Source: a phage
Sequence record: PZ445523.1
Strand: one strand, 5' to 3'
Length of the DNA stretch: 64,000 nt
The translations under genes were made by a program, and so were the position numbers. Shown here in pieces: positions 2,771 to 29,012 of the stretch; position 1 is the first letter of the stretch; each line of letters opens with the position of its first letter. Below the pieces are notes generated by a model. That model saw nothing but the letters and a program-made list of their open reading frames with translations. It did not search any database and was not told where the DNA came from.

Positions 2771-4453
2771 TTAAACCATTACAGTAAATCGACCAACTTT
2801 CTTCATTTGAAGATGCTGACCGTATGCTTGCGGGTCATGGTCTCTATGCGAAATAACAAAAACATTAGTATTTTTTAAACTATCTAAAATAGTTGAAATA
2901 GCTTTTACACCTTCAACGTCGGTCGCTGAATCAAAAACTTCATCAAGAATTAGTGTGTTTATTTTAACACCTGAAACTTTTTCAGCAATATCACGCCAAG
3001 TAAATAAAAGAGCAATATCAATTCGTGCTTTTTCACCTTGACTGAATGAAGCATAACTAAAATCTTCGCGACCACGGGATTTAATTGTCTCATTAAATTC
3101 TTCATCTAATGTAAACACATAATCCGCTTCCATTATTTTAAGATAATGGTTAATCTGCTTATTAAATAATGGAATGTACTTTTTAATAATAGCACCTTTA
3201 ATACCAGAATCTTTGAGCATATCAGTCAAAATTCCTCGGTGGTATTTTTCCATTACTAAATTAGTTTTTGTCTTAACAATTTTATCAAGTTCTTCTTGAA
3301 GCAGTGCTATTTCATCAGCATGGTCAATAAACTCAGAAGATGCTTTTTCTATAGCCGCTTTAACTTTTTTAGCTTTATCTACCGTCGTGATTAGAGATTG
3401 CTTTTTATTGCGAATATCATTTGCCAACGACTGTTGGGTTTTAATATTATCTCGGTATTCATCAACAAGAACTTTTAAATTATCACGATGTGTTGAAAGC
3501 TGTTCAAACGAATGCGTACATTCAGAAACTTTATCTTTAATTTTAGAAACAACTTTATCACCGGAACTTAATTGTGACAAGCAGGTTGGACATAATCCAC
3601 CTTCGTGATACATATTAATGACTTTATTATACGAGTCAATTTTTGATTTAATTAAAACTGCTTCTTGACCGATTTTATTAAATGCATCAGTCGGGTCTTC
3701 ATCTAAAACAATATTAACTAATCTTTCGTTAGCTTCTTCTATTTCCGATTTTAGCGTTCTAGCTTCTTTTGCCAAATCATCATACATATTTTGCAGACGA
3801 GTAAGGTTGTCACCCGTTAATTTTTTCTGGCGTTCAACGTTATCATTATATATTTTAATTTGTTGGATAATACTATCTTTTTTAACATCAAGCACTTGGT
3901 TCTGCGAATTTAATTCACGTATTAGTGCTTTATTAAGCTTATCCATTTCAGCTAATGTTCCTACCTCAAGCAGGTCTTCCACAAGCTTTCTTCGCGCAGG
4001 GGTCGACAAACCCATGAAAGGGGTATACCCTGCTGTACCAAGGACAACAATCTGCTTGAAACTGGCATATGACATTCCGATAAGCTGTTCAAATTCTGCT
4101 TGGAAATCTTTACTGCTGGCAGATTCATTAAGACGTGTACCGTTAACGGTGATTTCGAAAACGTTTGGTTTTTGTCCTCTTTTGATATAGTACTTTTTCT
4201 CATCATATTCCATCCACAGTTCAACTAAAAGTTCTTTCTTATTTGTGCTGTTTATTAATTGGCCTTTCTTTACATCACGAAATGGCTTGCCAAAAAGCCC
4301 AAATGTGATGGCTTCCAACATAGTAGACTTACCACCGCCATTTCGTCCAGTAATAAGAGTTTTTTGAACCTTATCTAATTGAATGTCAATAGGATTTCCA
4401 CCTACTGACATTATATTTTGATACCTAACTCGGTTTAGTTTAAAATTCTTCAC
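2771..4453 (-). CDS. 46: Recombination endonuclease subunit gp46 (Rad50/SbcC-like)
   Basis: 560 aa; Walker A GRNGGGKST, long central coiled coil with CPTC zinc hook, D-loop LILDEVFD. Confidence 0.9.
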   Translation of the reverse strand: MKNFKLNRVRYQNIMSVGGNPIDIQLDKVQKTLITGRNGGGKSTMLEAITFGLFGKPFRDVKKGQLINSTNKKELLVELWMEYDEKKYYIKRGQKPNVFEITVNGTRLNESASSKDFQAEFEQLIGMSYASFKQIVVLGTAGYTPFMGLSTPARRKLVEDLLEVGTLAEMDKLNKALIRELNSQNQVLDVKKDSIIQQIKIYNDNVERQKKLTGDNLTRLQNMYDDLAKEARTLKSEIEEANERLVNIVLDEDPTDAFNKIGQEAVLIKSKIDSYNKVINMYHEGGLCPTCLSQLSSGDKVVSKIKDKVSECTHSFEQLSTHRDNLKVLVDEYRDNIKTQQSLANDIRNKKQSLITTVDKAKKVKAAIEKASSEFIDHADEIALLQEELDKIVKTKTNLVMEKYHRGILTDMLKDSGIKGAIIKKYIPLFNKQINHYLKIMEADYVFTLDEEFNETIKSRGREDFSYASFSQGEKARIDIALLFTWRDIAEKVSGVKINTLILDEVFDSATDVEGVKAISTILDSLKNTNVFVISHRDHDPQAYGQHLQMKKVGRFTVMV

Positions 4454-4665
4454 AAAAGATTCCTTTTAATGTATCTTTTAGACCATTCTATCATATCATC
4501 ATAATCTAAAAAGTATTCATCAAATTCAGCCATGCAAACAACACCTTGCGCTGTTTTTGATGTAATATAAATTATTCCAACATATCTAGAATCTTCTTCT
4601 GTATAATCAATATTTGCTATGAATTCATCATTAATGTCAAATGTCGAAAACTTCACAATACGCAT
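4450..4665 (-). CDS. Hypothetical protein (46.1-like position)
   Basis: Small ORF between 46 and 47; start uncertain. Confidence 0.35.
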   Translation of the reverse strand: MRIVKFSTFDINDEFIANIDYTEEDSRYVGIIYITSKTAQGVVCMAEFDEYFLDYDDMIEWSKRYIKRNLL

Positions 4666-4900
4666 CCTTAATACAAGATATAGCCATATCTCGCAATGAT
4701 TTAGGTGTGTCATTATCTAAAATGTTGAAGTTAAAAGATACAGCCCAGTCAGTGCAGACCGTAACCTTTTTAATACAATTATCTTCAACCTCTAGTGGTT
4801 CAAACCAGTATTCAATAATTTCTTTATGCCCAATATCATCTTTTACTTCGCATTCAAAATGCTGACTCATCATAACATTTTTAAATTCATCAAAAGTCAT
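4637..4900 (-). CDS. Hypothetical protein (46.2-like position)
   Basis: 87-aa ORF between 46 and 47. Confidence 0.4.
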   Translation of the reverse strand: MTFDEFKNVMMSQHFECEVKDDIGHKEIIEYWFEPLEVEDNCIKKVTVCTDWAVSFNFNILDNDTPKSLRDMAISCIKDAYCEVFDI

Positions 4901-5916
4901 TGTGTTGCCTCTACATATAGCTGATTTGCATATTGAATAAGTGCTTCACGGTCAGAATCAGTGATGTCTGGAATTGCATTAATATACTCTTCCATTAATG
5001 TCTGAAGCGATTGAACTTCAACTTCTTCACTGTCATCTGACTCGACAGAGTTATCAATCTTTGACACAACTCGTAATGAATGCACAACTTTTTCTAGTTC
5101 AGATTCGAACTTCGTTAGATTTTTGTCTACTTCAGCTACTATAACACGTACTGATAGATTTGTAAAATCTTTATAGTCAATTTTTCCTTTAAATGGATAA
5201 TGAATTCTACGGTGCCAGGTAGTATTGTTTGGAATAAATTCCATTCGTTCTGTTTCTGTATCAAACATCCAGAACCCACGAGGGTCATTCTCGTCACCTG
5301 CAGTTAGTGTCCATGGTGTCCCAATATATCTGACGTTAGCAGCCTCAGAGATAGTATGGAAGTGACCAGACCACACCTCTTTATAAGTCTTAAGGAAATC
5401 AGGTTCAAGACCGTGAGATTTCATTCCTTTATAAAAATAAAATCCATTCAGCTCCCAGTGACCAACACAAAAAGAAGCAGATGAAGTTTTGATGTGCTCA
5501 AGAATTTCACCAGTATTTTCTTCGCACATCCAAGGAATCAAATCAATCAAACATCCGTCAAAATCTACTGTAGTAGGCTTATCATATACTTTAACATTAG
5601 GATATTTAGCCAAAAGCTCAGTAGAAGCATTTGGAGTTAAAGTATTTTTAAAGTGCATATCATGGTTTCCTACAACAGTATGTAGGGTAATACCAGCATC
5701 ATCAAGCATTTGAACTATTTCACGAGCGAACTCCATAGTTTTATGCGTGATTGCTTTTCGCACATCAAAAATATCGCCGTATTGAATCCAGGTAGTAATT
5801 CCATTTTTCTTAGAATATTCTATCGCTTGCTTAATTCCATCCAACTGAATGGATTGAACCCACTCATCATCGGCTTTAACGCCTAAATGCCAATCACCTA
5901 AATTTAAAATTTTCAT
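4897..5916 (-). CDS. 47: Recombination nuclease subunit gp47 (Mre11/SbcD-like)
   Basis: 339 aa; phosphoesterase motifs LNLGDWHLG, GNHD, GHWE/GHFH. Confidence 0.9.
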   Translation of the reverse strand: MKILNLGDWHLGVKADDEWVQSIQLDGIKQAIEYSKKNGITTWIQYGDIFDVRKAITHKTMEFAREIVQMLDDAGITLHTVVGNHDMHFKNTLTPNASTELLAKYPNVKVYDKPTTVDFDGCLIDLIPWMCEENTGEILEHIKTSSASFCVGHWELNGFYFYKGMKSHGLEPDFLKTYKEVWSGHFHTISEAANVRYIGTPWTLTAGDENDPRGFWMFDTETERMEFIPNNTTWHRRIHYPFKGKIDYKDFTNLSVRVIVAEVDKNLTKFESELEKVVHSLRVVSKIDNSVESDDSEEVEVQSLQTLMEEYINAIPDITDSDREALIQYANQLYVEATQ

Positions 5917-6094: not shown

Positions 6095-7295
6095 ATTTTG
6101 TAATAATGTCAAACTGTTCTTTAAAGCAGAAGCTTGAATCTTGATGCTGATACAAAAATTCATATGCTTTTTCACGTTCGCGGTCATAAAGAGCTCGGTC
6201 AGATGACAGTTCTTTAATACGTTCAAATGTTGATTCCATGTCATTTTCATCAAACCAAATGATACCGCTATCATGCGAGGTCAAAGGAGTATTATCAACA
6301 CGGAATTTTAAATTTTCGCCAGTAGATTTCCAAAATACCGGAATTGTTCCACATGCACCAAGCTCGAGATGAGTATATTCTAAAGAACGTTGTAGATATT
6401 TTTTGTCCAACTTACTCAACTGATAACCAAATCCGGATTTACTCATGCGTTCAAGCATTTCGCTATTTACATAACGGTCAAGAATTTGCGTTGGCAAATT
6501 AGGAGCAATTTTAATTTGGTCTACTTGATGAAGACGATAATACTCGTATGGAATTCCTTTTTCTTTAATAGGAATGAACGCTGGAGAACGTTCCAGACCT
6601 TCCATAATAGTACTTAGTCCTGCAGGTTTAAGATGTTTTTCATGAAAATCAAACATCTGATAAAAACCTTTCCATGTAGTCGTACGACCAATCCAACGGT
6701 TGATATTCATGTTAATTTCAGAAACATCTTTCCAGTATGTTGATCGAACCTTTGCAATATCCATCGGAGGCTGAAAGTTATATACGGTCGGTGCTTCTTC
6801 AATATCATCAAACAGAGAAACAGTTTCTGGATACCACTCTTTCATCAGAACTTTATTAAAATCACCATTATCAGAATGGCTAAAAATAATATCAGCTCGA
6901 CGAACAGTTTCTTCTAATCCCAAATTTCGACGCAAAGAAAGAGAAGAATGGTCATGCTGATAAACTACAACACGAACCGAAGGTTTAATGTTATCAATAA
7001 TTTTTTTATAGTTATTAATAGTGTCTTCTTCAACTGAAGTAGCAGGAACTGAATTGATAATTAGAATATCACAATCATTTACCAGCTTAAGTGTTTTATC
7101 GTATTCTTTTGCCAATAAAACCGGAATTGAAAATGATTTATAATCATGTGCACAGTTACGAGTAAATGATTTATCTTTAGCATAAACCAAAGTTACTTCA
7201 TGACCATTTTTAATAAACCAATCACGCTGCTCGAGTGAGAATTTTGTTACACCACAACCTTCAAGACCTCGAGCCATAAAAATACATACTTTCAT
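6093..7295 (-). CDS. agt: DNA alpha-glucosyltransferase
   Basis: 400 aa, same length and position (47 to 55 interval) as T4 a-gt. Confidence 0.75.
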   Translation of the reverse strand: MKVCIFMARGLEGCGVTKFSLEQRDWFIKNGHEVTLVYAKDKSFTRNCAHDYKSFSIPVLLAKEYDKTLKLVNDCDILIINSVPATSVEEDTINNYKKIIDNIKPSVRVVVYQHDHSSLSLRRNLGLEETVRRADIIFSHSDNGDFNKVLMKEWYPETVSLFDDIEEAPTVYNFQPPMDIAKVRSTYWKDVSEINMNINRWIGRTTTWKGFYQMFDFHEKHLKPAGLSTIMEGLERSPAFIPIKEKGIPYEYYRLHQVDQIKIAPNLPTQILDRYVNSEMLERMSKSGFGYQLSKLDKKYLQRSLEYTHLELGACGTIPVFWKSTGENLKFRVDNTPLTSHDSGIIWFDENDMESTFERIKELSSDRALYDREREKAYEFLYQHQDSSFCFKEQFDIITK

Positions 7296-21963: not shown

Positions 21964-22683
21964 TTATGATTCTTCTAAATGTCTTTTCTGAAAAGTTGAT
22001 ACCATACTACGATAAGGTTCATTTGGATACCCGTGTTTTATAGCTTCCTTTGTAAATTTTCTCCATCCGTATTTAGTTTCTTTCCAAAGCTCGAATAATT
22101 CATCTTCATACTGCCATATAGTTAAATGAGAACGCTTTGCAGCTTTAATTCCATTAATGTGCTTTTCTTTTACTGTAGGATTGCTTAGTGTCTTTTTAAT
22201 AATATTACTAACTTTTCTAACAAAAGCTGGGTCCTTATATCGTTGTGAAGTTTTTATTGAAGTGTTTAATTTAGCTTCCGGCGTGGATGTGACCTCTTTC
22301 ATCTTTTTCTTCATATGCTCTATATGATTAGGATTTTTCCATAAATTTATAGAATGCTTTTTACATTTTATCCTAGTTTCATCTGCAACCTTTCCTCCTT
22401 CACCCCCATATGACAGGTTAACGCAGTTTTTTCCATATTTCAATTTACCTGCCATGATATATAATATTTCGGCTTGTACCATTTTATCATAATTATCAAA
22501 AACTTCTAAAACCGTTTTTGATAATATATGGTCATTTGACACTTTTACACGTTCTATATAATTTCCACTACCAACATACGAATCATTGATGTTATTAGTT
22601 ATATGTCGACCATAATAGTATTTCTTAATACCTGTCTTTAAATTTAATATTTCAGTTTTATAGATAGTAAAATATTTTTTCAT
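21964..22683 (-). CDS. Seg-like GIY-YIG homing endonuclease
   Basis: N-terminus YYYGRHITNNINDSYVGSGNY and later NLSYGGEGG align with the SegB ORF in this window (KIYIGVHSTENLDDGYMGSG, NLKLGGEGG). Confidence 0.6.
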   Translation of the reverse strand: MKKYFTIYKTEILNLKTGIKKYYYGRHITNNINDSYVGSGNYIERVKVSNDHILSKTVLEVFDNYDKMVQAEILYIMAGKLKYGKNCVNLSYGGEGGKVADETRIKCKKHSINLWKNPNHIEHMKKKMKEVTSTPEAKLNTSIKTSQRYKDPAFVRKVSNIIKKTLSNPTVKEKHINGIKAAKRSHLTIWQYEDELFELWKETKYGWRKFTKEAIKHGYPNEPYRSMVSTFQKRHLEES

Positions 22684-23648
22684 TTTAATAATACCGTTTC
22701 AGCAATTTCTTCCCAATGGTTTTTGTCGGTCATAATAAAGTCAGCAAGATAAAGTGCAGTACGCAGTGAAACATTGCGTAAACGATTAACATTGACTTTC
22801 ATCCATGATAATGCTTTATAAGTTTCTTCATCAGAAAGACCGCGCTTTTGCATCATGTCAGTTGAAAGAATAACATCTTCAACCCTGACCATAATTTCTT
22901 CATTAGTGTGAACACCCAAATCTAAATAAACTGAGCGGGACACTAATGCTTGTAAATGTGGAGCAAGTTTAGTACCACGGTCTAATTCGCGGTCAATATC
23001 AACGTTTGTGATAAAAACAATCGTTCCTTTAAATTCAAACTCACGCTCAATGCCTTTTTCTTCTAAGTAAGAAGATGCAGTGCTCCAGCAGACTTTACGG
23101 GTCTCTCCAGTGTCCAGAGCAGCTTTCAGAAGATTAAGAATGTCCATATCAGAGAAAACATCCACATCATCAATCAAAAGGACAGAATTCTCTTCACGAT
23201 TATTCCAAAGCTGTTCATAAAGACCGATACCAGAGATTTTACCATTAATGCTTTTATACTCAATGTATCCAATATCATTTGCTTTATTCAAAGCTTTATC
23301 TAAAGAATACGTTTTACCAATACCTGCCGCACCAGAGATAATTAATGAACGAATGTTTCCGTTAATAATACCATTCGTCATCATTCCCATAACATTAAAT
23401 CTTTTATTAATGCGGGTTTTCATATCTTCATATGATTCTTTAACTTCTTCAACTTTTACACCATCATATGAAATGTCTGATTTGTAAACCCAAACACCGC
23501 GACGTTTACCATCAATTTCAACAAAAACTTTACCGTCTCCTTGTGCATCTACCGGAGCATTATCTGGGAACCATTCGCCTAAGAGCTCAAAAGTTCCAGA
23601 AATTTCTTTACCGAAGTAGATACCCTTATTGATAGTTACAGTTTTCAT
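22680..23648 (-). CDS. AAA+ ATPase
   Basis: Likely start MKTVTINKG; Walker A ISGAAGIGKTYS, Walker B VLLIDDVD, sensor-like TNV. Confidence 0.7.
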   Translation of the reverse strand: MKTVTINKGIYFGKEISGTFELLGEWFPDNAPVDAQGDGKVFVEIDGKRRGVWVYKSDISYDGVKVEEVKESYEDMKTRINKRFNVMGMMTNGIINGNIRSLIISGAAGIGKTYSLDKALNKANDIGYIEYKSINGKISGIGLYEQLWNNREENSVLLIDDVDVFSDMDILNLLKAALDTGETRKVCWSTASSYLEEKGIEREFEFKGTIVFITNVDIDRELDRGTKLAPHLQALVSRSVYLDLGVHTNEEIMVRVEDVILSTDMMQKRGLSDEETYKALSWMKVNVNRLRNVSLRTALYLADFIMTDKNHWEEIAETVLLK

Positions 23649-23682
23649 TTTATTCTCCAAATCCGTATCAGTTGATAGTTGT

Positions 23683-23712
23683 ATAGTACCATAAAGCTTT
23701 ATGCTTGTAAAC
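23683..23712 (-). promoter_or_regulatory. Early promoter
   Basis: GTTTAC, 18 nt, TACTAT; upstream of the AAA+ ATPase gene. Confidence 0.6.
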
Positions 23713-23742
23713 AACTTTGTGAAAAATTTTTGAAATAAAAAA

Positions 23743-23762
23743 GGGGAGCCCGAAGGCTCCCC
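23743..23762 (-). terminator. Intrinsic terminator after the nucleotidyltransferase gene
   Basis: GGGGAGCC-UUCG-GGCTCCCC followed by a T-run on the minus strand. Confidence 0.7.
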
Positions 23763-23763
23763 A

Positions 23764-24777
23764 TCATTTATAATAACTTCGGTGGTTTTCAAGATAGACC
23801 TTCTCAAGGAAGTCATCCCAGAAACTCATGTCTACTTTTTGCTGCATACCGTTCTTAGAAGCTTCAGTAGATGCTGCTTCTACTTGATCGACCACATCTT
23901 CCAAAAACTCTTGAACCGTTTTAAATGGATGTTTACCCAACTTCACGTCGAGAATAAATGGAGCATCTTGGAGTGGATAAATCAAGTCGCCAGTTTTGTA
24001 AATTTCCAATAGTTGAAGTCCACCACGACAAGCATGGCTCAGAGCTTTCCAGTCAATACCTTCATTGGCTTCAGCCTTACGAGCACGTTCACCGTATTCA
24101 GCATCTAATTTGTTCAGTGACTGCTTAAGCTCAATAAGAGAAAGCGTTGTCTGATATTTACGACCCAACACAGTGTAGAACGTTTGTGGGCCTGTTTTCT
24201 CATGATTATGGAACACCCATTCACAGAATTCGTTTTCTGGAAGACGATGCTTAATATCTTCAACTTTAGTGCGACGCTGCTTAATAGAACCATCTTCTTG
24301 GTAATCAACCCATTGCTCAGGGATTTGATTAACTACTTTCAATACATCACGTAATGCAGCCAAACGAGAACCCTTGACACCGTATTTAGAAGCTTGCTTG
24401 CGGACATATCCTAAATATGATTTCATGTTAGTCGTATAAAAACGAGAACGGTTGTCTTGAATAAACTTCCACACATCAGGCAAATCAGATTTAACCACTA
24501 GTTCAGGTGGAGTGTGAAGCATATCTAATGCTACAGTTTCACCATCTGCTGCTAATTTAAAGAAATATTTAAGACTGTATAGTTCATGGTCAATATCATC
24601 TTTAGTGTTTTTAGATGATGTGTTGTTAGTGTTTTTACTCATATGCTCTTTAACATTTCCGATAAGAATATCGCGAGCAGGAGGAACAAAGATTTCTTTA
24701 AAATCTACATCAGATTCTGGGGTAGAAGTTCCATAAAGATGACTACCAAAATAGCTTTTCATTACTGTTTTCATCAT
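23764..24777 (-). CDS. Nucleotidyltransferase (Pol-beta / minimal NTase fold)
   Basis: N-terminal FGSHLYGTSTPESDVDF matches the GS-x(9-13)-DxD nucleotidyltransferase signature; 337 aa. Confidence 0.6.
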   Translation of the reverse strand: MMKTVMKSYFGSHLYGTSTPESDVDFKEIFVPPARDILIGNVKEHMSKNTNNTSSKNTKDDIDHELYSLKYFFKLAADGETVALDMLHTPPELVVKSDLPDVWKFIQDNRSRFYTTNMKSYLGYVRKQASKYGVKGSRLAALRDVLKVVNQIPEQWVDYQEDGSIKQRRTKVEDIKHRLPENEFCEWVFHNHEKTGPQTFYTVLGRKYQTTLSLIELKQSLNKLDAEYGERARKAEANEGIDWKALSHACRGGLQLLEIYKTGDLIYPLQDAPFILDVKLGKHPFKTVQEFLEDVVDQVEAASTEASKNGMQQKVDMSFWDDFLEKVYLENHRSYYK

Positions 24778-25235
24778 TCAGCCTTATATTCAATAACAGG
24801 ACATACTTTAGCTTTACGAGCTTTTAAAAATTCAACGATAATCGATTTCTTGGGTTGAATAGGAGGTAAACCTTTATACGCCCTATCAATATTTTCTATG
24901 TGTAAAGCATAATCCTTTTTCCATTTATAATCTTTATATTTTTCACGCAAATGTGCAGGAATAACAAATGAACCGATAATAAGTAAAACAACCAAAAGCG
25001 CAAGTATAAATGCTGATGGAAGCAAAGTCCATAAACTACCAAAAATAAGCCAACGTTGTAGGCTTTCTGCACAAATAATTGTTAGCCCTACGAGTATAGC
25101 ACACCCAAAAATAGAAACGAAAAATGTAGGAATAGCAATAGACCAAAAATATGCGCATAGTGTCTTAGGTCGTTGCCATTCATCGTTAAACAATTTGAAT
25201 AATTTATAGTGCCAAGAGTTTTCATTAATAATCAT
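24774..25235 (-). CDS. Integral membrane protein
   Basis: 153 aa with about three predicted transmembrane helices. Confidence 0.5.
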   Translation of the reverse strand: MIINENSWHYKLFKLFNDEWQRPKTLCAYFWSIAIPTFFVSIFGCAILVGLTIICAESLQRWLIFGSLWTLLPSAFILALLVVLLIIGSFVIPAHLREKYKDYKWKKDYALHIENIDRAYKGLPPIQPKKSIIVEFLKARKAKVCPVIEYKAE

Positions 25236-25237
25236 AA

Positions 25238-25759
25238 TTATCCTTTCATTGAAGGCGTAACGGTTGTTAAATACTTAATCATAGCTTCAGCTTCTGATTT
25301 TGATAATGAAATTTCTCCATTGTTTTGACGAATAGAAATAAAATCCGGATGACGGTCACCACCAGCTTTTAAAACACACATATAAGTATCAACTTCGCCT
25401 TCAATATTTGAAATGATTGAAGCAGTTCCACATGAATGTGGTTTTTGATAAATCAATACAGCTTTTCTTCCGCCATTTGACTGTTCATATGCTTTTAACA
25501 CATCAAGCAAATCAGTTCTTTTATCAATAGCTAAAATGTTATTTTCATCTTCAATGTTAAATCCTTCGGATACTTCATAAAGCGTTACCCATAAATCACC
25601 AATGTCAATAACAGCATTTACGTTTCCACGGCTTTCAAGAGCATGACAAATTTTCTTGATTTCGTCATAACTCATTTTAATAATATCATCTCCTTGAATA
25701 AGAAAGATGTCATTTTTAAATTCAACACGAATTAAACCACTTCCACTTGAAATAAACAT
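25238..25759 (-). CDS. Tandem-paralog protein 1
   Basis: 173 aa; C-terminus SKSEAEAMIKYLTTVTPSM resembles the neighbour. Confidence 0.5.
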   Translation of the reverse strand: MFISSGSGLIRVEFKNDIFLIQGDDIIKMSYDEIKKICHALESRGNVNAVIDIGDLWVTLYEVSEGFNIEDENNILAIDKRTDLLDVLKAYEQSNGGRKAVLIYQKPHSCGTASIISNIEGEVDTYMCVLKAGGDRHPDFISIRQNNGEISLSKSEAEAMIKYLTTVTPSMKG

Positions 25760-25765
25760 ATTTCC

Positions 25766-26320
25766 TCACTTTGAAATCATAGTTGGAATGACAGAATCAA
25801 GATAAGTCTTTAGCGCAATAGCTTCGTCTTTGGTAAATGTGACAATATGTGCTCGAGAATCATCAATTTGGCGAACAAGTACGACATCGCCATCTTCATA
25901 AGAAGTCTTGACATCCAAAGTCGTAGTATAATTTGCAGCTACTGGATTAATAATGCTAGCACCGCGATCTTTAGCCCATTGAAGTTTAGACTTTTCGGGT
26001 GTTTCGACTGTTTCAGATTCCAAGAATTCTTTCACCTTGGCAACGAATGTTGCCCAATTGTTGATAGAAAGACACGCAAGTTCAGTTTCAATATTACCAC
26101 CGTGAGTGCCACGATAAAAACGAACTTGGAGGTCGTCTGTAATATTAGTTACACAGGTAACTCCTGAGGGAGCATAAGATAAAATCGCAGGCAATTCCAT
26201 AGGAAGAATAGTAATACTATCGTCTTCCTGCGTCAGAACGTATATATTACCACGTTTTTCGATAACCAGGTCACCGAACAAATCAGTTGTTTCAATTACA
26301 GCTTTCATATTATTTACCAA
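25766..26320 (-). CDS. Tandem-paralog protein 2
   Basis: 184 aa; C-terminus TKDEAIALKTYLDSVIPTM. Confidence 0.5.
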   Translation of the reverse strand: MVNNMKAVIETTDLFGDLVIEKRGNIYVLTQEDDSITILPMELPAILSYAPSGVTCVTNITDDLQVRFYRGTHGGNIETELACLSINNWATFVAKVKEFLESETVETPEKSKLQWAKDRGASIINPVAANYTTTLDVKTSYEDGDVVLVRQIDDSRAHIVTFTKDEAIALKTYLDSVIPTMISK

Positions 26321-26495
26321 TTAAAGTTTCAATATAAGAATCAAGATTTACTTTAGCTTCTTCCATAAGAGTTTTGTATTTAATCTTGTTGGCATGTCCG
26401 GAGAAAGCTGATTCATCAATAATTGTTGATGTATGAACAGCTTTACTATACGTCTCAATTAATTCTCTTAATTTAAAAGCCTGCTCACTTGTCAT
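26310..26495 (-). CDS. Small helical protein, family member
   Basis: 61 aa; MTSEQAFKLRELI...LDSYIETLIGK. Confidence 0.45.
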   Translation of the reverse strand: MTSEQAFKLRELIETYSKAVHTSTIIDESAFSGHANKIKYKTLMEEAKVNLDSYIETLIGK

Positions 26496-26627
26496 TACAT
26501 ACTCCTCTGAATCATATCAATAATGTTGTTCACCAGATTATAAGTAAACATTGGGTAATTATATTGAATCATCACATACACAACAAACAAAACTTTCATT
26601 CTCTTCTCCTTGGCAGTTGACAAGATT

Positions 26628-26657
26628 ACTATACCATAACCTTGCCAACTTGTAAAC
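26628..26657 (-). promoter_or_regulatory. Early promoter
   Basis: GTTTAC, 18 nt, TATAGT. Confidence 0.5.
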
Positions 26658-26823
26658 CATTAAATGACGTTTTCGATAAAATTCTGAAGCTTTGTATGAG
26701 CATCAACCATGATTTTCATTTCTTCTTTGGCGAAAGCTATACCTCTTTCACGAGAAGAATATTCATAGTCAGAAACTGCATTAGCATATTCTTCAATTAG
26801 CTTTCATTAAAAACATCTGCTTT

Positions 26824-27018
26824 TCAGTTTTCATTATTCCACCTAATCATTTCAAGATATTGAACTAACTTAGCTTTGGATTTATCCAAATCCTTTTTAG
26901 CTGCTTCTATACCGTCGTATGAATATCCTTCACAATGCTCAACTGCTAATTGATATGAATCTATTTCAATATCATGCGCTAATTTAATGATTTTTTCAAA
27001 CTGTTCGTGTGTTAGCAT
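26824..27018 (-). CDS. Small helical protein, family member
   Basis: 64 aa; MLTHEQFEKIIKL...LVQYLEMI. Confidence 0.45.
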   Translation of the reverse strand: MLTHEQFEKIIKLAHDIEIDSYQLAVEHCEGYSYDGIEAAKKDLDKSKAKLVQYLEMIRWNNEN

Positions 27019-27020
27019 AC

Positions 27021-27239
27021 TTACACTCTCGTATTATGATCGATAATTTCATCAAGAAACATATCTAACGCTTCTAAAGCATTATCAACTTTAGCTTCAA
27101 ATTCTTCAATACCTGATAAGGCAAAGTTAACGCGTTCCTCATCTGCTTTACGAATTAAAGCTACCAATTCCTTAATTTTATCCGCTTGTTCAATACTAAT
27201 CATTATTCCACCACATATGAAAGAGAGAATATTGCACAC
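27021..27239 (-). CDS. Small helical protein, family member
   Basis: [13 protein letters not shown]...LDMFLDEII. Confidence 0.4.
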
Positions 27240-27391
27240 GCCATGTGAGTTGCAGCTTCATCACACATATTATAACGTTTCTTAAGAAGTTCTACAAGTT
27301 CTTCACTAGTGACTTCATCCATGTCGACGAAAAAATCACCATTAATGATGACGTAGATATTTCCTTCTTGATTGAGTGCTTCAATTTTCAT
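27203..27391 (-). CDS. Hypothetical small protein
   Basis: Likely start MKIEALNQ just downstream of an early promoter. Confidence 0.4.
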
Positions 27392-27419
27392 GATGTTCTC
27401 CTCTTTATCCGATGGTTGT

Positions 27420-27449
27420 ATAGTACCACAGCTCAAACGGAAAGTAAAC
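27420..27449 (-). promoter_or_regulatory. Early promoter
   Basis: GTTTAC, 18 nt, TACTAT. Confidence 0.6.
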
Positions 27450-27464
27450 CGGTAAAATGAAAAA

Positions 27465-27482
27465 AGTCTCCCGAAGGAGACT
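27465..27482 (-). terminator. Intrinsic terminator
   Basis: AGTCTCC-UUCG-GGAGACT followed by TTTTTT. Confidence 0.65.
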
Positions 27483-27486
27483 AATG

Positions 27487-27873
27487 TTATTCGAGGGAAA
27501 GAAGATACTTACTCTGGTAAAACATTCCAGTAATATCATCTATCGTGCTTTGGATGGCTGGAGGCATTTCTTTATAAATGCTGTTAGATTGGTCTAGTAT
27601 GCGATCAATCATTTTAATTGTGTCGGTAGGAAGTTTACTGGCATCTGGAATTGAAGGTGTGTATTTTCGACCAGAATACCCCAAATATTGCTCACCAAAT
27701 TTATCAATCAAATCTGGCAACTCGGAGAAAATAAAATCGTATGCTTTGTGTCTAGCATAACTTTTAGTTTCAAAATGTGCAGAATGAAAATAAGCTTGTG
27801 CAGCCATTAATAAACCTAAGTATTCATCTGCCTTTGAAGGTTTTCCACTTTGTGAAAAGTCGCTGAATTTCAT
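27487..27873 (-). CDS. Hypothetical protein (rI.-1-like position)
   Basis: 128-aa ORF immediately upstream of rI on the minus strand. Confidence 0.45.
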
Positions 27874-28163
27874 TCAGTCTCCAATTTAATGTTCATAATT
27901 CTAGCGTATGATTGTGCCATCTCCGCGCCTCGTTCTATACATTCAAAATCAGAAGAGCACGGGTCATTTTTATAGGTCGTTCTCATAAAACTATAGAATT
28001 GTTCAGACGATTCTACGCTTTTATTTTCAAAAAGCATATAAACGTGCCTAATACCAGATTCCATAAATTTATCAAAATGAGGATCGGCATTCGCTTCAAT
28101 CGATGGAGATAAAACAAATGACAATCCTAGCATGGCAAATAGTGCCGTTGCTTTTAAGGCCAT
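27870..28163 (-). CDS. rI: Lysis inhibition regulator rI
   Basis: 97 aa; N-terminal signal/anchor MALKATALFAMLGLSFVLSPSIEA; matches T4 rI as I recall it. Confidence 0.85.
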   Translation of the reverse strand: MALKATALFAMLGLSFVLSPSIEANADPHFDKFMESGIRHVYMLFENKSVESSEQFYSFMRTTYKNDPCSSDFECIERGAEMAQSYARIMNIKLETE

Positions 28164-28175
28164 AAAGGCCTCCTA

Positions 28176-28388
28176 TCATTTTTGTCCTGTATTTACTTTA
28201 TGCCGATGCACGGCCTTAACTTTATCAAGGTATTTTTCAAAATTTCGCAATCTAGTATAGTCTGCCGGAGATTGGTTGAGTGATACTTCTCGACGCAAAG
28301 CTGAAATGATATTTCCAACTTCCCTACGAATTTCATCTAATTGAAGCACAGTAAGATTGCGAAGTTGCTTTTCAGTTAATTGTAGCAT
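28176..28388 (-). CDS. Hypothetical small protein
   Basis: 70-aa ORF between rI and tk. Confidence 0.4.
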
Positions 28389-28430
28389 ATATACCCCTTT
28401 AGTTAGATAAACCTATTTATAACTTTTGCA

Positions 28431-29012
28431 CTAACCGAGCTTTTTAGTTAATTCATTCCAATGTTTTCTACACAAAGAAACATAAATTTCATCACCAATA
28501 CAGATTTGATTACCTTCTTTAACTGATGTTCCATCTTCCATTAATCGAGCTGTCATAATCGCTTTTTTACCACAATGACAAACTGCCTTTAGTTCAATAA
28601 GTTTATCTGCAATCGCTAAAAGTTCTTTAGAACCTTCAAACAATTTTCCAGCGAAATCAGTCCTTAATCCATAAGCCATAACAGGAACATTATATGTATC
28701 AACAATTCGGCTCAATTGATGCACCTGTTCAGTTTTTAAAAATTGGGCTTCATCTACAAATATGCAATGAATATCTTTTTGTGCTTCAGCCCATTTATAG
28801 AACTCGAAAATATCCATATCATCCGTAATAATATTCGCTTCCTGCTTAATTCCAATGCGAGAAACGACTTCACAGACAGAATCGCGAGTATCAATAGCAG
28901 GCTTAAGAACTAATACGCCCATTCCGCGTTCTTTATAATTGTGTGCAGCAGTCAAAAGAGAAGCAGATTTTCCAGCATTCATTGCTGCATAAGTAAAAAT
29001 TAAACTCGCCAT
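28431..29012 (-). CDS. tk: Thymidine kinase
   Basis: 193 aa; P-loop NAGKSASL, zinc cysteines CHCGKKA. Confidence 0.9.
   Translation of the reverse strand: MASLIFTYAAMNAGKSASLLTAAHNYKERGMGVLVLKPAIDTRDSVCEVVSRIGIKQEANIITDDMDIFEFYKWAEAQKDIHCIFVDEAQFLKTEQVHQLSRIVDTYNVPVMAYGLRTDFAGKLFEGSKELLAIADKLIELKAVCHCGKKAIMTARLMEDGTSVKEGNQICIGDEIYVSLCRKHWNELTKKLG

Follow-up and report, generated by a model that had tools for sequence, protein, structure and literature searches.

The window analysed here, 64,000 nt of phage DNA (sequence record PZ445523.1), contains what is probably a packed minus-strand transcription unit, which would start at a promoter near 26.64 kb, end at a terminator at 23.75 kb and comprise, in order, mobD.2, a DUF7438 gene, MobD.1 and a distant paralog of it, a two-span membrane protein and the NrdC.11 nucleotidyltransferase (Table 1). 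The names are fixed by the annotation of RB27, T4 and T6, and over 24500-26600 the DNA shares 97-98% identity with RB27, Solly and similar phages. The three open reading frames to which the earlier note had drawn attention are all present on the minus strand, the largest of them as a 184-aa frame (25766-26320) with a TTG start. The true start of this frame is probably ATG 26308, which gives a protein of 180 aa (MKAVIETT...) and agrees with the RB27 and T6 annotation and with cluster P0037.

Table 1. Features of the mobD.1-nrdC.11 region, in the direction of transcription.
Feature	Position	Strand	Basis
Sigma-70-like (T4 early-type) promoter match	26628..26656	-	TTTACA-17-TATAGT with TG extension, upstream of mobD.2
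DUF7438 protein, 61 aa	26310..26495	-	Pfam PF24219 E 1.4e-15; phrog_4859 E 8e-39
MobD.1 ortholog (y05I), 180 aa	25766..26308	-	ATG 26308 (probable start); T4_y05I_N and T4_y05I_C
MobD.1 paralog, 173 aa (RB32ORF097c type)	25238..25759	-	BLASTP; T4_y05I_N and T4_y05I_C
Two-span inner-membrane protein, 153 aa (RB32ORF096c / RB69ORF104c family)	24774..25235	-	phrog_944 E 4e-50
nrdC.11, nucleotidyltransferase of the RlaP / COG3541 type	23764..24777	-	Pfam PF10127 E 1.7e-11; T4, RB27 and T6 annotation
Intrinsic-terminator-like hairpin	23743..23762	-	8 pairs (7 G-C), then a T run

The promoter is the best consensus match within 23500-28500 (10/12 positions) and is read as a consensus match alone, as shuffled sequence is expected to give as many promoter matches as the region does in total. 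It is likely the start of the transcription unit that carries the paralog pair and the membrane gene. The region has more terminator-like sites than expected (8 vs 2.1), and the hairpin lies 1 nt beyond the stop codon (23764-23766) of nrdC.11, the last gene of the unit. The membrane-gene stop overlaps the nrdC.11 start (ATGA), and the DUF7438 stop codon lies 1 nt ahead of the MobD.1 ATG. The DUF7438 protein, which is labelled 'helicase loader' in PHROGs (a label only), is 98.4% identical to the T6 copy; in T4, by contrast, mobD.2 adjoins mobD.1 directly, without a DUF7438 gene. No late-promoter TATAAATA occurs within the interval, and the nearest MotA-box-like match (27058-27081) lies within mobD.4. 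The sole Rfam match, to L20_leader over the nrdC.11 terminator, is sub-threshold (28 bits vs a cut-off of 58.7) and judged a chance match. The rI gene is separate (27870-28163).

The 173-aa and 184-aa proteins share full-length similarity (28% identity over 173 columns, E 6e-8 in a single BLASTP comparison) and the same two Pfam domains, which bears out their earlier description as paralogs; the conserved C-terminal segments align as they had been written. Against gathering cut-offs of 24.9 for PF24449 (T4_y05I_N) and 27 for PF24448 (T4_y05I_C), the 184-aa protein scores 111.7 bits (E 3e-32) and 63.6 bits (E 2e-17), and the 173-aa protein 114.7 bits (E 3e-33) and 81.1 bits (E 8e-23), respectively. 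Both fall in phrog_1502 (E about 1.5e-66). The upstream copy is the ortholog of T4 MobD.1, as it lies directly upstream of the mobD slot, the position held by MobD.1 in T4 and T6. It ends in the same 35 residues as T6 MobD.1, and the C-terminus is common to T4 MobD.1 too. Over the whole protein, identity is 68% to the allele of Mosigvirus JS09, 50% to that of T6 and 47% to that of T4, and in a sliding window the nucleotide identity to T4 climbs from ~50% to 97% at 25817-25758. By these comparisons MobD.1 is a Mosigvirus-like allele of which the last ~110 nt are of the Tequatrovirus type.

The membrane protein, described earlier as having about three helices, shows two hydrophobic spans by hydropathy and charge distribution, at about residues 31-57 and 67-95. 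An N-terminal amphipathic helix precedes the spans and a basic C-terminal tail (15 K+R) follows them, a pattern that points to a cytoplasmic location of both ends. The phrog_944 match places it in the RB69ORF104c / RB32ORF096c family, which has no Pfam entry and was found by tblastn in 914 phage records. The motifs NSWHY...LCxYFW (N-terminal) and YLKAKKxKVCPxIE(F/Y) (C-terminal) are invariant in 19 diverse homologs, and H9, C27, C145 and P146 are invariant across distant homologs. An AlphaFold2 model (pLDDT 62, pTM 0.27) is below use for fold search. Pfam and NCBIfam reveal no homology to the T4 exclusion and lysis-control proteins Imm, Sp, RI and RIII, and only sub-threshold chance matches (DUF2207_C and TIGR03750, 15 bits each). 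The membrane protein and the 173-aa paralog are 99.3% and 96.5% identical to their T6 copies, and relative to Shigella phage sb3 the differences by codon position are 12/6/25 for the membrane gene and 6/6/18 for the paralog. Both genes look like real coding sequence.

In T4, a free-standing HNH homing endonuclease gene, mobD, sits between nrdC.11 and mobD.1, with flanking genes as in the window. The earlier note had named mobD as the T4 gene hereabouts and had seen no HNH motif in the interval, and both points hold: Pfam detects no HNH family in the three reading frames, and T4 MobD finds no tblastn match in 24774-26320. Its C-terminal DNA-binding part weakly matches another endonuclease gene of the window, at 21991-22296. 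All three genes had been placed where T4 has mobD; this is so for the 173-aa gene and the membrane gene, but not for the 184-aa (180-aa) gene, which as the MobD.1 ortholog flanks the slot. The T4 mobD measures 780 nt vs 980 nt for paralog plus membrane gene in the window. The T4 and window sequences are the same across the mobD.1 stop, GGAAAT and ATGTTTATTTCAAGTGGAA, after which the alignment is lost until the nrdC.11 start. The membrane gene is missing from T4, and of the 173-aa gene only the first 19 nt are left, a stump that opens a remnant reading frame, MFISSGTDMCYKCKAKLNETKNQ, the closing TGA of which overlaps the mobD ATG. This alignment establishes that a replacement by mobD took place. 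In the T4 lineage mobD replaced the stretch from paralog codon 7 to the nrdC.11 start codon, and both the paralog and the membrane gene were lost. T4 keeps the ribosome-binding site of the paralog together with its first six codons, which now open a 23-codon leader ORF; the stop codon of this ORF overlaps the mobD start, and the ORF is presumed to be translationally coupled to mobD. No flanking direct or inverted repeats that might explain a cassette exchange were found.

The two states of the junction differ in distribution. The two-gene segment occurs in 450 records (423 of them at 80% coverage or more), T2 and T6 among them, with identities of 91-99% that track backbone divergence. By contrast, mobD occurs in 47 records, and all copies are at least 99.4% identical; in pSe_SNUABM_01 and WL-3 it is 99.6-100% identical to T4 between flanks that are only 89-92% (mobD.1) and 95-97% (nrdC.11) identical. 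In six Tevenvirinae genera the membrane gene comes next after a y05I-domain gene. The order in Mosigvirus JS09 and Dhakavirus JS10 is a single MobD.1, the membrane gene and nrdC.11; in Jiaodavirus Kpn6N, Gelderlandvirus SEA1 and Winklervirus CHI14 it is one or more y05I_C-only genes with the membrane gene immediately behind. Since the two-gene layout is the majority state, the adjacency recurs across six genera and T4 keeps the 19-nt stump, T4 is taken to be the derived form. Read in this way, the interval shows the nrdC.11-mobD.1 junction of a Tequatrovirus in its ancestral form, free of mobD. The joint reading, in which this ancestral junction and the replacement in T4 are combined with a predicted single-strand-binding y05I fold and a y05I-membrane protein partnership, is given a probability of roughly 0.75.

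The interval had previously been taken for a variable accessory slot, that is, a hot spot between nrdC.11 and mobD.1 in which the membrane gene and paralog are one cargo among many, as mobD is. The neighbourhood does vary: T4 carries mobD, T6 has a Phage_tudor ORF that is missing from the window, MobD.1 alleles differ by about 50%, some contigs have a single chimeric y05I gene (T4-type MobD.1 N-domain with paralog-type C-domain, P0011), and one contig (L011) has the paralog type alone. At the exact position of mobD, however, only two states are seen (423-450 vs 47 records). The membrane gene occupies that position in six genera and belongs to a widespread family, the two-gene segment diverges with the backbone whereas mobD is near-identical throughout and has sharp edges, and the variation sits in the upstream y05I genes rather than in the cargo of a slot. 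The description as a variable slot is abandoned in view of the majority state, and a hot spot with many cargoes is considered unlikely. If mobD.1 had recently been duplicated in tandem in this lineage, leaving the second copy at liberty to diverge or decay, this would account for two adjoining genes on one strand with a shared two-domain architecture, and tandem y05I_C-only pairs are present in SEA1. Such an origin is nonetheless highly improbable: the 173-aa protein is equidistant (25-28% identity) from each MobD.1 ortholog tested from Tequatrovirus, Mosigvirus and Dhakavirus, which are themselves 33-68% identical to each other, and its gene has stayed conserved across about 450 records (91-99% nucleotide identity), the changes being in excess at third positions. 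The equal distance and the conservation imply that the split is old or that the copy was acquired elsewhere.

The ancestral, mobD-free arrangement is an already known, ordinary endonuclease-free early operon of T4-like phages, since the GenBank record of T6 carries the notes 'replaces mobD; RB32ORF096c' and 'similar to mobD.1; RB32ORF097c'. The T6 / RB32 / RB14 records (GenBank MH550421, FJ839692) have RB32ORF096c, RB32ORF097c and mobD.1 with genes and order as in the window, except that in T6 the Phage_tudor ORF (88 aa) lies between DUF7438 and mobD.1. What is corrected is a view centred on T4: at the nrdC.11-mobD.1 junction the reference phage is the exception, having lost two resident genes to a mobile endonuclease gene. 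One of the two, that of the membrane protein, occurs in more than 900 T4-like phage records. The junction also offers a clean, dated-looking case of the spread of a free-standing homing endonuclease gene with sharp edges that captured the translation start of a displaced gene. Similarly to segG, mobE and others, mobD is a near-identical endonuclease cassette in diverged flanks; a minority of related phages have it, and it lies without a promoter of its own inside an existing operon. Unlike a simple intergenic insertion, its entry was coupled to the loss of two resident genes. The activity and target site of MobD are listed as undetermined (PMC2988022). For the three genes of the window a testable lead is gained, in the form of a predicted PC4/PUR-like single-strand-binding fold in MobD.1 and the paralog and of their possible cooperation with the membrane protein. 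The importance beyond tidying the record is small.

An AlphaFold2 model of the 173-aa protein (mean pLDDT 85) has the topology (beta4-alpha)x2 followed by beta5-alpha. The strands and helices of the first repeat (E2-5, E8-14, E18-22, E25-29, H31-43) and the second (E49-53, E56-60, E67-70, E75-78, H81-94) are both modelled at a pLDDT of about 90, and the predicted secondary structure of residues 1-95 is that of the PC4-like / PUR / Whirly fold class. This region may form an intramolecular double beta-beta-beta-beta-alpha domain of that class, members of which characteristically bind ssDNA or RNA on their beta-sheets (PMC7549692). Judged from predicted structure, the two y05I proteins would bind single-stranded nucleic acid. 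The best-conserved part, the C-terminal domain (about residues 100-172), may be a third repeat of like kind and may pair with another copy, so that homo- or heterodimers of MobD.1 and the paralog would be possible, in the manner of Pur-alpha. Stand-alone C-domain proteins of 65-90 aa exist in other T4-like genera. By hhalign, N-repeat 1 matches the C-domain profile (P 1.3e-4, probability 27%) with a shared Q-x-x-D...E-helix pattern, and no signal is found between N-repeats 1 and 2 or between N-repeat 2 and the C-domain. The case for a third repeat in the model is weak because the residue span of the short single-repeat matches is unreported: those to the phage T5 PC4 homolog, YdbC and Borrelia Pur-alpha (single-repeat, type II) fall in an unspecified region of the model. 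Foldseek finds no PDB match with E below 0.01, with 2nvn, 2it9 and SsgB alone at high probability, and its matches in BFVD are confined to members of the family and uncharacterised proteins of Bacillus and Streptomyces phages. A sequence search of solved structures gives nothing below E 1 for either protein used as query, and Pfam PurA, PC4 and Whirly have no match up to E 1.

The Pfam name of PF24449 and PF24448, 'y05I-like putative transcription factor', would suit conventional dsDNA-binding factors that regulate phage or host promoters, and descriptions of the structural neighbours (Pur-alpha, PBF-2 p24, PC4 and Sub1) present them as transcription regulators or cofactors (PMC7549692 among the sources). 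This role is judged quite improbable, since Pfam finds no helix-turn-helix or other dsDNA-binding domain and members of the fold class typically bind ssDNA or RNA (PMC7549692). A more elaborate form of the single-strand-binding reading would make y05I a viral counterpart of Pur-alpha, in which the C-repeat works with the membrane protein as a two-gene module conserved in at least six Tevenvirinae genera, the paralogs form heterodimers and the divergence of the MobD.1 N-domain is host-selected. The architecture of Pur-alpha is type I plus type II (PMC7549692), and a type I and a single-repeat type II domain in one chain are known solely from eukaryotic Pur-alpha, according to a 2020 review. Compared to Pur-alpha (PUR repeats I-II plus III), the C-domain of y05I differs in having five predicted strands, and there is no sequence similarity to the Pfam PurA, PC4 or Whirly models. 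The proposal is rather doubtful; if true, the ~50% divergence of the MobD.1 N-domain would reflect selection by a host factor, e.g., a defence system that uses or senses single-stranded nucleic acid.

The y05I C-domain gene and the membrane gene probably act together, as they are directly adjacent in six genera. Adjacency is the sole link between the two, and it is missing in Aeromonas phage Aszh-1 and in environmental contigs with distant membrane homologs. The module is dispensable in the laboratory, and the nrdC.11-mobD.3 fragment is lost from viable genome-reduced T4 mutants (PMC9825161). A literature search on mobD.1, y05I, nrdC.11 and the RB32/RB69 ORFs returned no functional study. The y05I and membrane proteins may constitute a host-interaction module for counter-defence or superinfection exclusion, a role compatible with single-strand binding. 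In keeping with this are the location in an early-type operon amid small accessory genes near rI, the tolerance of the nrdC.11-mobD.3 loss in the laboratory, and the occurrence of distant membrane homologs 1-2 genes from Gad2-family and GmrSD_N-domain genes in environmental phage contigs. In addition, MobD.1 is 50% identical between phages with neighbouring genes that are 96.5-99% identical, and under such a role the rapid turnover of alleles would imply an arms race. The allele difference is, however, also explained by recombination with a Mosigvirus-like phage, the membrane gene is missing from T4, PADLOC models give no match, and Pfam and NCBIfam detect no known anti-defence or exclusion family. 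A host-interaction role is accordingly put forward only tentatively and is thought unlikely.

A functional pairing of the membrane gene with nrdC.11, prompted by their stop/start overlap, was also considered and was dropped in favour of the y05I_C-membrane adjacency. Among the distant homologs, what lies downstream of the membrane gene shows no relation to NrdC.11 (no RlaP domain, BLASTP E above 0.8). In Kpn6N, CHI14 and SEA1, nrdC.11 is separated from the membrane gene by other genes.

All genes in this region of the window lie on the minus strand and are of T4-like phage type, and Escherichia phages Solly, 4E10 and RB27 are among those that match the segment at 24500-26600 with 97-98% identity. 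The earlier note described a membrane gene and two tandem paralogs at the place where T4 has mobD; its coordinates and quoted peptides are correct and its observation is confirmed. Similarity between the 173-aa and 184-aa proteins spans their entire length (28% identity, E 6e-8); both match the Pfam models T4_y05I_N and T4_y05I_C well over threshold and belong to one and the same PHROG. T4 indeed has an HNH gene here, in the order nrdC.11, mobD (HNH), mobD.1, mobD.2. The placement of both paralogs in the mobD slot does not hold, as one of them is MobD.1 itself: T4 MobD.1 and the window 184-aa protein share the C-terminus ...EEAIALKTYLDSVIPTMISK, which identifies the upstream "paralog" as the MobD.1 ortholog. 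Its start is most likely ATG 26308 (180 aa), per the annotation of RB27 and T6. Public records annotate the arrangement and Pfam has families for both domains, so the finding is not new; modest additions that could guide experiments are the predicted fold, the mosaic MobD.1 allele and the adjacency of y05I and membrane genes.

Features of the mobD.1 region in the window and of related loci
Feature	Sequence	Coordinates	Strand	Remark
tk	window	28431-29012	-	first in transcription order, then rI.1, rI, rI.-1
rI	window	27870-28163	-	between rI.1 and rI.-1
terminator-like hairpin	window	27482-27465	-	after rI.-1
small mobD.x genes	window		-	after rI.-1, before DUF7438 gene
DUF7438 paralog array	window	26310-27203	-	includes broken mobD.2a
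mobD.4	window	27021-27203	-	array member
mobD.3	window	26824-27018	-	array member
mobD.2a	window	26660-26834	-	G inserted at about 26800
sigma-70-like match	window	26656-26628	-	consensus match
DUF7438 protein, 61 aa	window	26310-26495	-	array member
184-aa ORF (MobD.1 ortholog)	window	25766-26320	-
173-aa ORF (paralog)	window	25238-25759	-
153-aa ORF (membrane protein)	window	24774-25235	-
nrdC.11	window	23764-24777	-	then nrdC.10
terminator-like hairpin	window	23762-23743	-	after nrdC.11
nrdC.10, mechanical ORF (378 aa)	window	22680-23816	-
seg-like endonuclease, 239 aa	window	21964-22683	-	between nrdC.9 and nrdC.10
23-codon ORF opened by the stump of the 173-aa gene	T4 (L002)	7209-7277	-
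mobD match to L019, L020	T4 (L002)	6430-7209
region compared with window MobD.1 (25766-26308)	T6 (L014)	4655-5465
split two-gene segment and mobD.1	T2 (L013, LC348380)	885-2314
chimeric y05I gene (P0011)	metagenomic contigs L009, L010	3001-3540
paralog-type y05I gene alone	metagenomic contig L011	1533-2057
tandem y05I_C-only genes	SEA1 (L015)	3001-3457
Gad2-family gene	environmental contig L005	2395-3813
distant membrane-protein homolog	environmental contig L007	3492-4004

Identity between T4 and the window runs past the mobD.1 stop codon and the GGAAAT spacer into the 173-aa gene, whose opening 19 nt (ATGTTTATTTCAAGTGGAA) are shared; beyond these 19 nt similarity is lost, and it returns exactly at the start of nrdC.11. 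Thus, mobD (780 nt) replaces the 173-aa gene from codon 7 and the whole membrane gene, its window counterpart being about 980 nt. What T4 retains of the displaced 173-aa gene, its RBS and first six codons, opens a 23-codon ORF (MFISSGTDMCYKCKAKLNETKNQ), the TGA of which overlaps the mobD ATG. From this overlap, mobD apparently borrows the translation start of the displaced gene, and the leftover leader may be translationally coupled to the endonuclease. T6 has the layout of the window, with GenBank notes reading "replaces mobD; RB32ORF096c" and "similar to mobD.1; RB32ORF097c". T2 retains the two-gene segment, but its membrane gene, paralog and mobD.1 are all split: compared to the window, the paralog is broken by 1-nt and 2-nt deletions (window positions about 25609 and 25380) and the membrane gene by a 2-nt deletion (about 25134), while mobD.1 is annotated solely as a 97-aa fragment. 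These breaks could be real decay or a sequencing error or sequence-quality problem.

The interpretation offered in the earlier note is partly right, but the direction of change is the other way round. The two-gene segment is found in 450 phage records (423 at a coverage of at least 80%) with 91-99% identity, and mobD in 47, every one at least 99.4% identical. In pSe_SNUABM_01 and WL-3, neither of which derives from T4, mobD and its T4 counterpart share 99.6-100% identity with sharp match edges at the ORF boundaries, whereas the flanks are at 89-92% (mobD.1) and 95-97% (nrdC.11). Near-identical mobD in diverged flanks is the mark of a mobile cassette that has spread recently, and the pattern agrees with recent horizontal transfer that co-converted little of the flanks. 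Mosigvirus JS09 and Dhakavirus JS10 have the order single MobD.1, membrane gene, nrdC.11, and 914 phage records, apparently all T4-like, contain a detectable copy of the membrane protein. T4 is accordingly derived, and the window shows the ordinary state.

A recent duplication as the origin of the 173-aa paralog is contradicted by its 25-28% identity to each MobD.1 of Tequatrovirus, Mosigvirus and Dhakavirus, compared to 33-68% among these orthologs themselves; equally far from all of them, it is instead an old paralog. Two y05I copies were seen in Tequatrovirus records only. Two metagenomic contigs carry a chimeric single gene (T4-type MobD.1 N-domain, paralog-type C-domain) and a third the paralog-type gene alone, in each case with a Phage_tudor gene before and the membrane gene and nrdC.11 after.

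The variable gene of this locus is MobD.1 itself. Between the window and T6, the membrane protein, paralog, nrdC.11 and DUF7438 proteins are 96.5-99.3% identical, but MobD.1 just 50%; window MobD.1 is 68% identical to that of JS09. Nucleotide identity to T4 mobD.1 stays near 50% for most of the gene's length, then reaches 97% over the final 60 nt; the comparison with JS09 shows the opposite trend. The switch to Tequatrovirus sequence comes some 110 nt ahead of the stop codon. Window mobD.1 thus looks like a recombinant with a Mosigvirus-like allele, a type noted in about 73 records. An 88-aa Phage_tudor ORF that T6 carries upstream of mobD.1 is not present at the window locus.

The membrane assignment of the 153-aa protein stands, while "about three helices" is slightly off: its hydrophobic stretches number two (31-57 and 67-95), preceded by an amphipathic helix at the N-terminus and followed by a C-terminal tail that is strongly basic. 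The family, which has no Pfam entry, is recognised by an N-terminal NSWHY...LCxYFW motif, a C-terminal YLKAKKxKVCPxIE(F/Y) motif and the invariant residues H9, C27, C145 and P146. [quoted passage not shown] The adjacency was not found in Aeromonas phage Aszh-1 or in environmental contigs with distant membrane-protein homologs. On such contigs (L005, L006 and L007), these homologs are 1-2 genes from a Gad2-family (anti-Gabija) gene and immediately follow a GmrSD_N-domain gene, which hints weakly at an accessory or anti-defence context.

From the DUF7438 gene to nrdC.11, consecutive genes are separated by 1 nt, 6 nt and 2 nt and finally overlap (ATGA); this close packing, with the promoter-like and terminator-like consensus matches, suggests a single transcription unit from mobD.2 to nrdC.11. 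The T4 fragment nrdC.11-mobD.3 is lost from viable genome-reduced mutants (PMC9825161), which makes this stretch dispensable under laboratory conditions.

The y05I family is a small one, with 26 cluster representatives at E <=1e-3 among 1.84 billion proteins. Full-length members are restricted to T4-like phages, and stand-alone C-domain proteins are of 65-90 aa, ending ...(F/L)TKxEAxALVxYLNSVIPTMK. An AlphaFold2 model of the 173-aa protein (23-sequence alignment, mean pLDDT 85) has the predicted topology beta4-alpha, beta4-alpha (residues 1-95), then beta5-alpha (100-172). Its structural neighbours include MRP2 (8.4), an SsgA-like protein (8.1), Whirly PBF-2 (7.1) and StWhy2 (6.8), the tools not showing the residues covered by short matches; all four have the PC4-like fold. 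Proteins of this class bind single-stranded DNA or RNA, and Pur-alpha is described as the only one among them to combine a type I (intramolecular) with a type II (dimerising single-repeat) domain (PMC7549692). When the profile of N-repeat 1 is compared with that of the C-domain, P is 1.3e-4 and a Q-x-x-D...E-helix pattern is shared, a hint that the C-domain is a third repeat. A Foldseek search with the model gave no significant match, nor did Pfam PurA, PC4 or Whirly match. PC4-like binding of single-stranded nucleic acid would be the most likely y05I mechanism, at about even odds, as a model-based prediction rather than a result.

Nearby, a seg-like free-standing homing endonuclease gene (phrog_314, E 4e-30) is present in the window and T6 (98.3% identical) but not at this site in T4 and RB27, and about 503 related records include 67 with the full-length gene. 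Its product resembles the DNA-binding part of T4 MobD in the C-terminal part (31% identity); thus, a mobile endonuclease gene, not of HNH type, lies about 2 kb from the 24774-26320 locus. The adjacent nrdC.10 ORF extends upstream across the nrdC.11 terminator hairpin, and the true start is probably an internal ATG (MKTVTINKG..., about 322 aa), as in T4, RB27 and T6. The DUF7438 paralogs form an array within about 900 nt, with four or five copies plus tk.1 in related contigs. In mobD.2a, a one-base insertion (GAAAGCTAATT in the window, GAAACTAATT in RB27, GAAGCTAATT in T4) shifts the frame after codon 11, making the window copy a pseudogene or a sequencing error; T4 mobD.2a is truncated too, but elsewhere in the gene.
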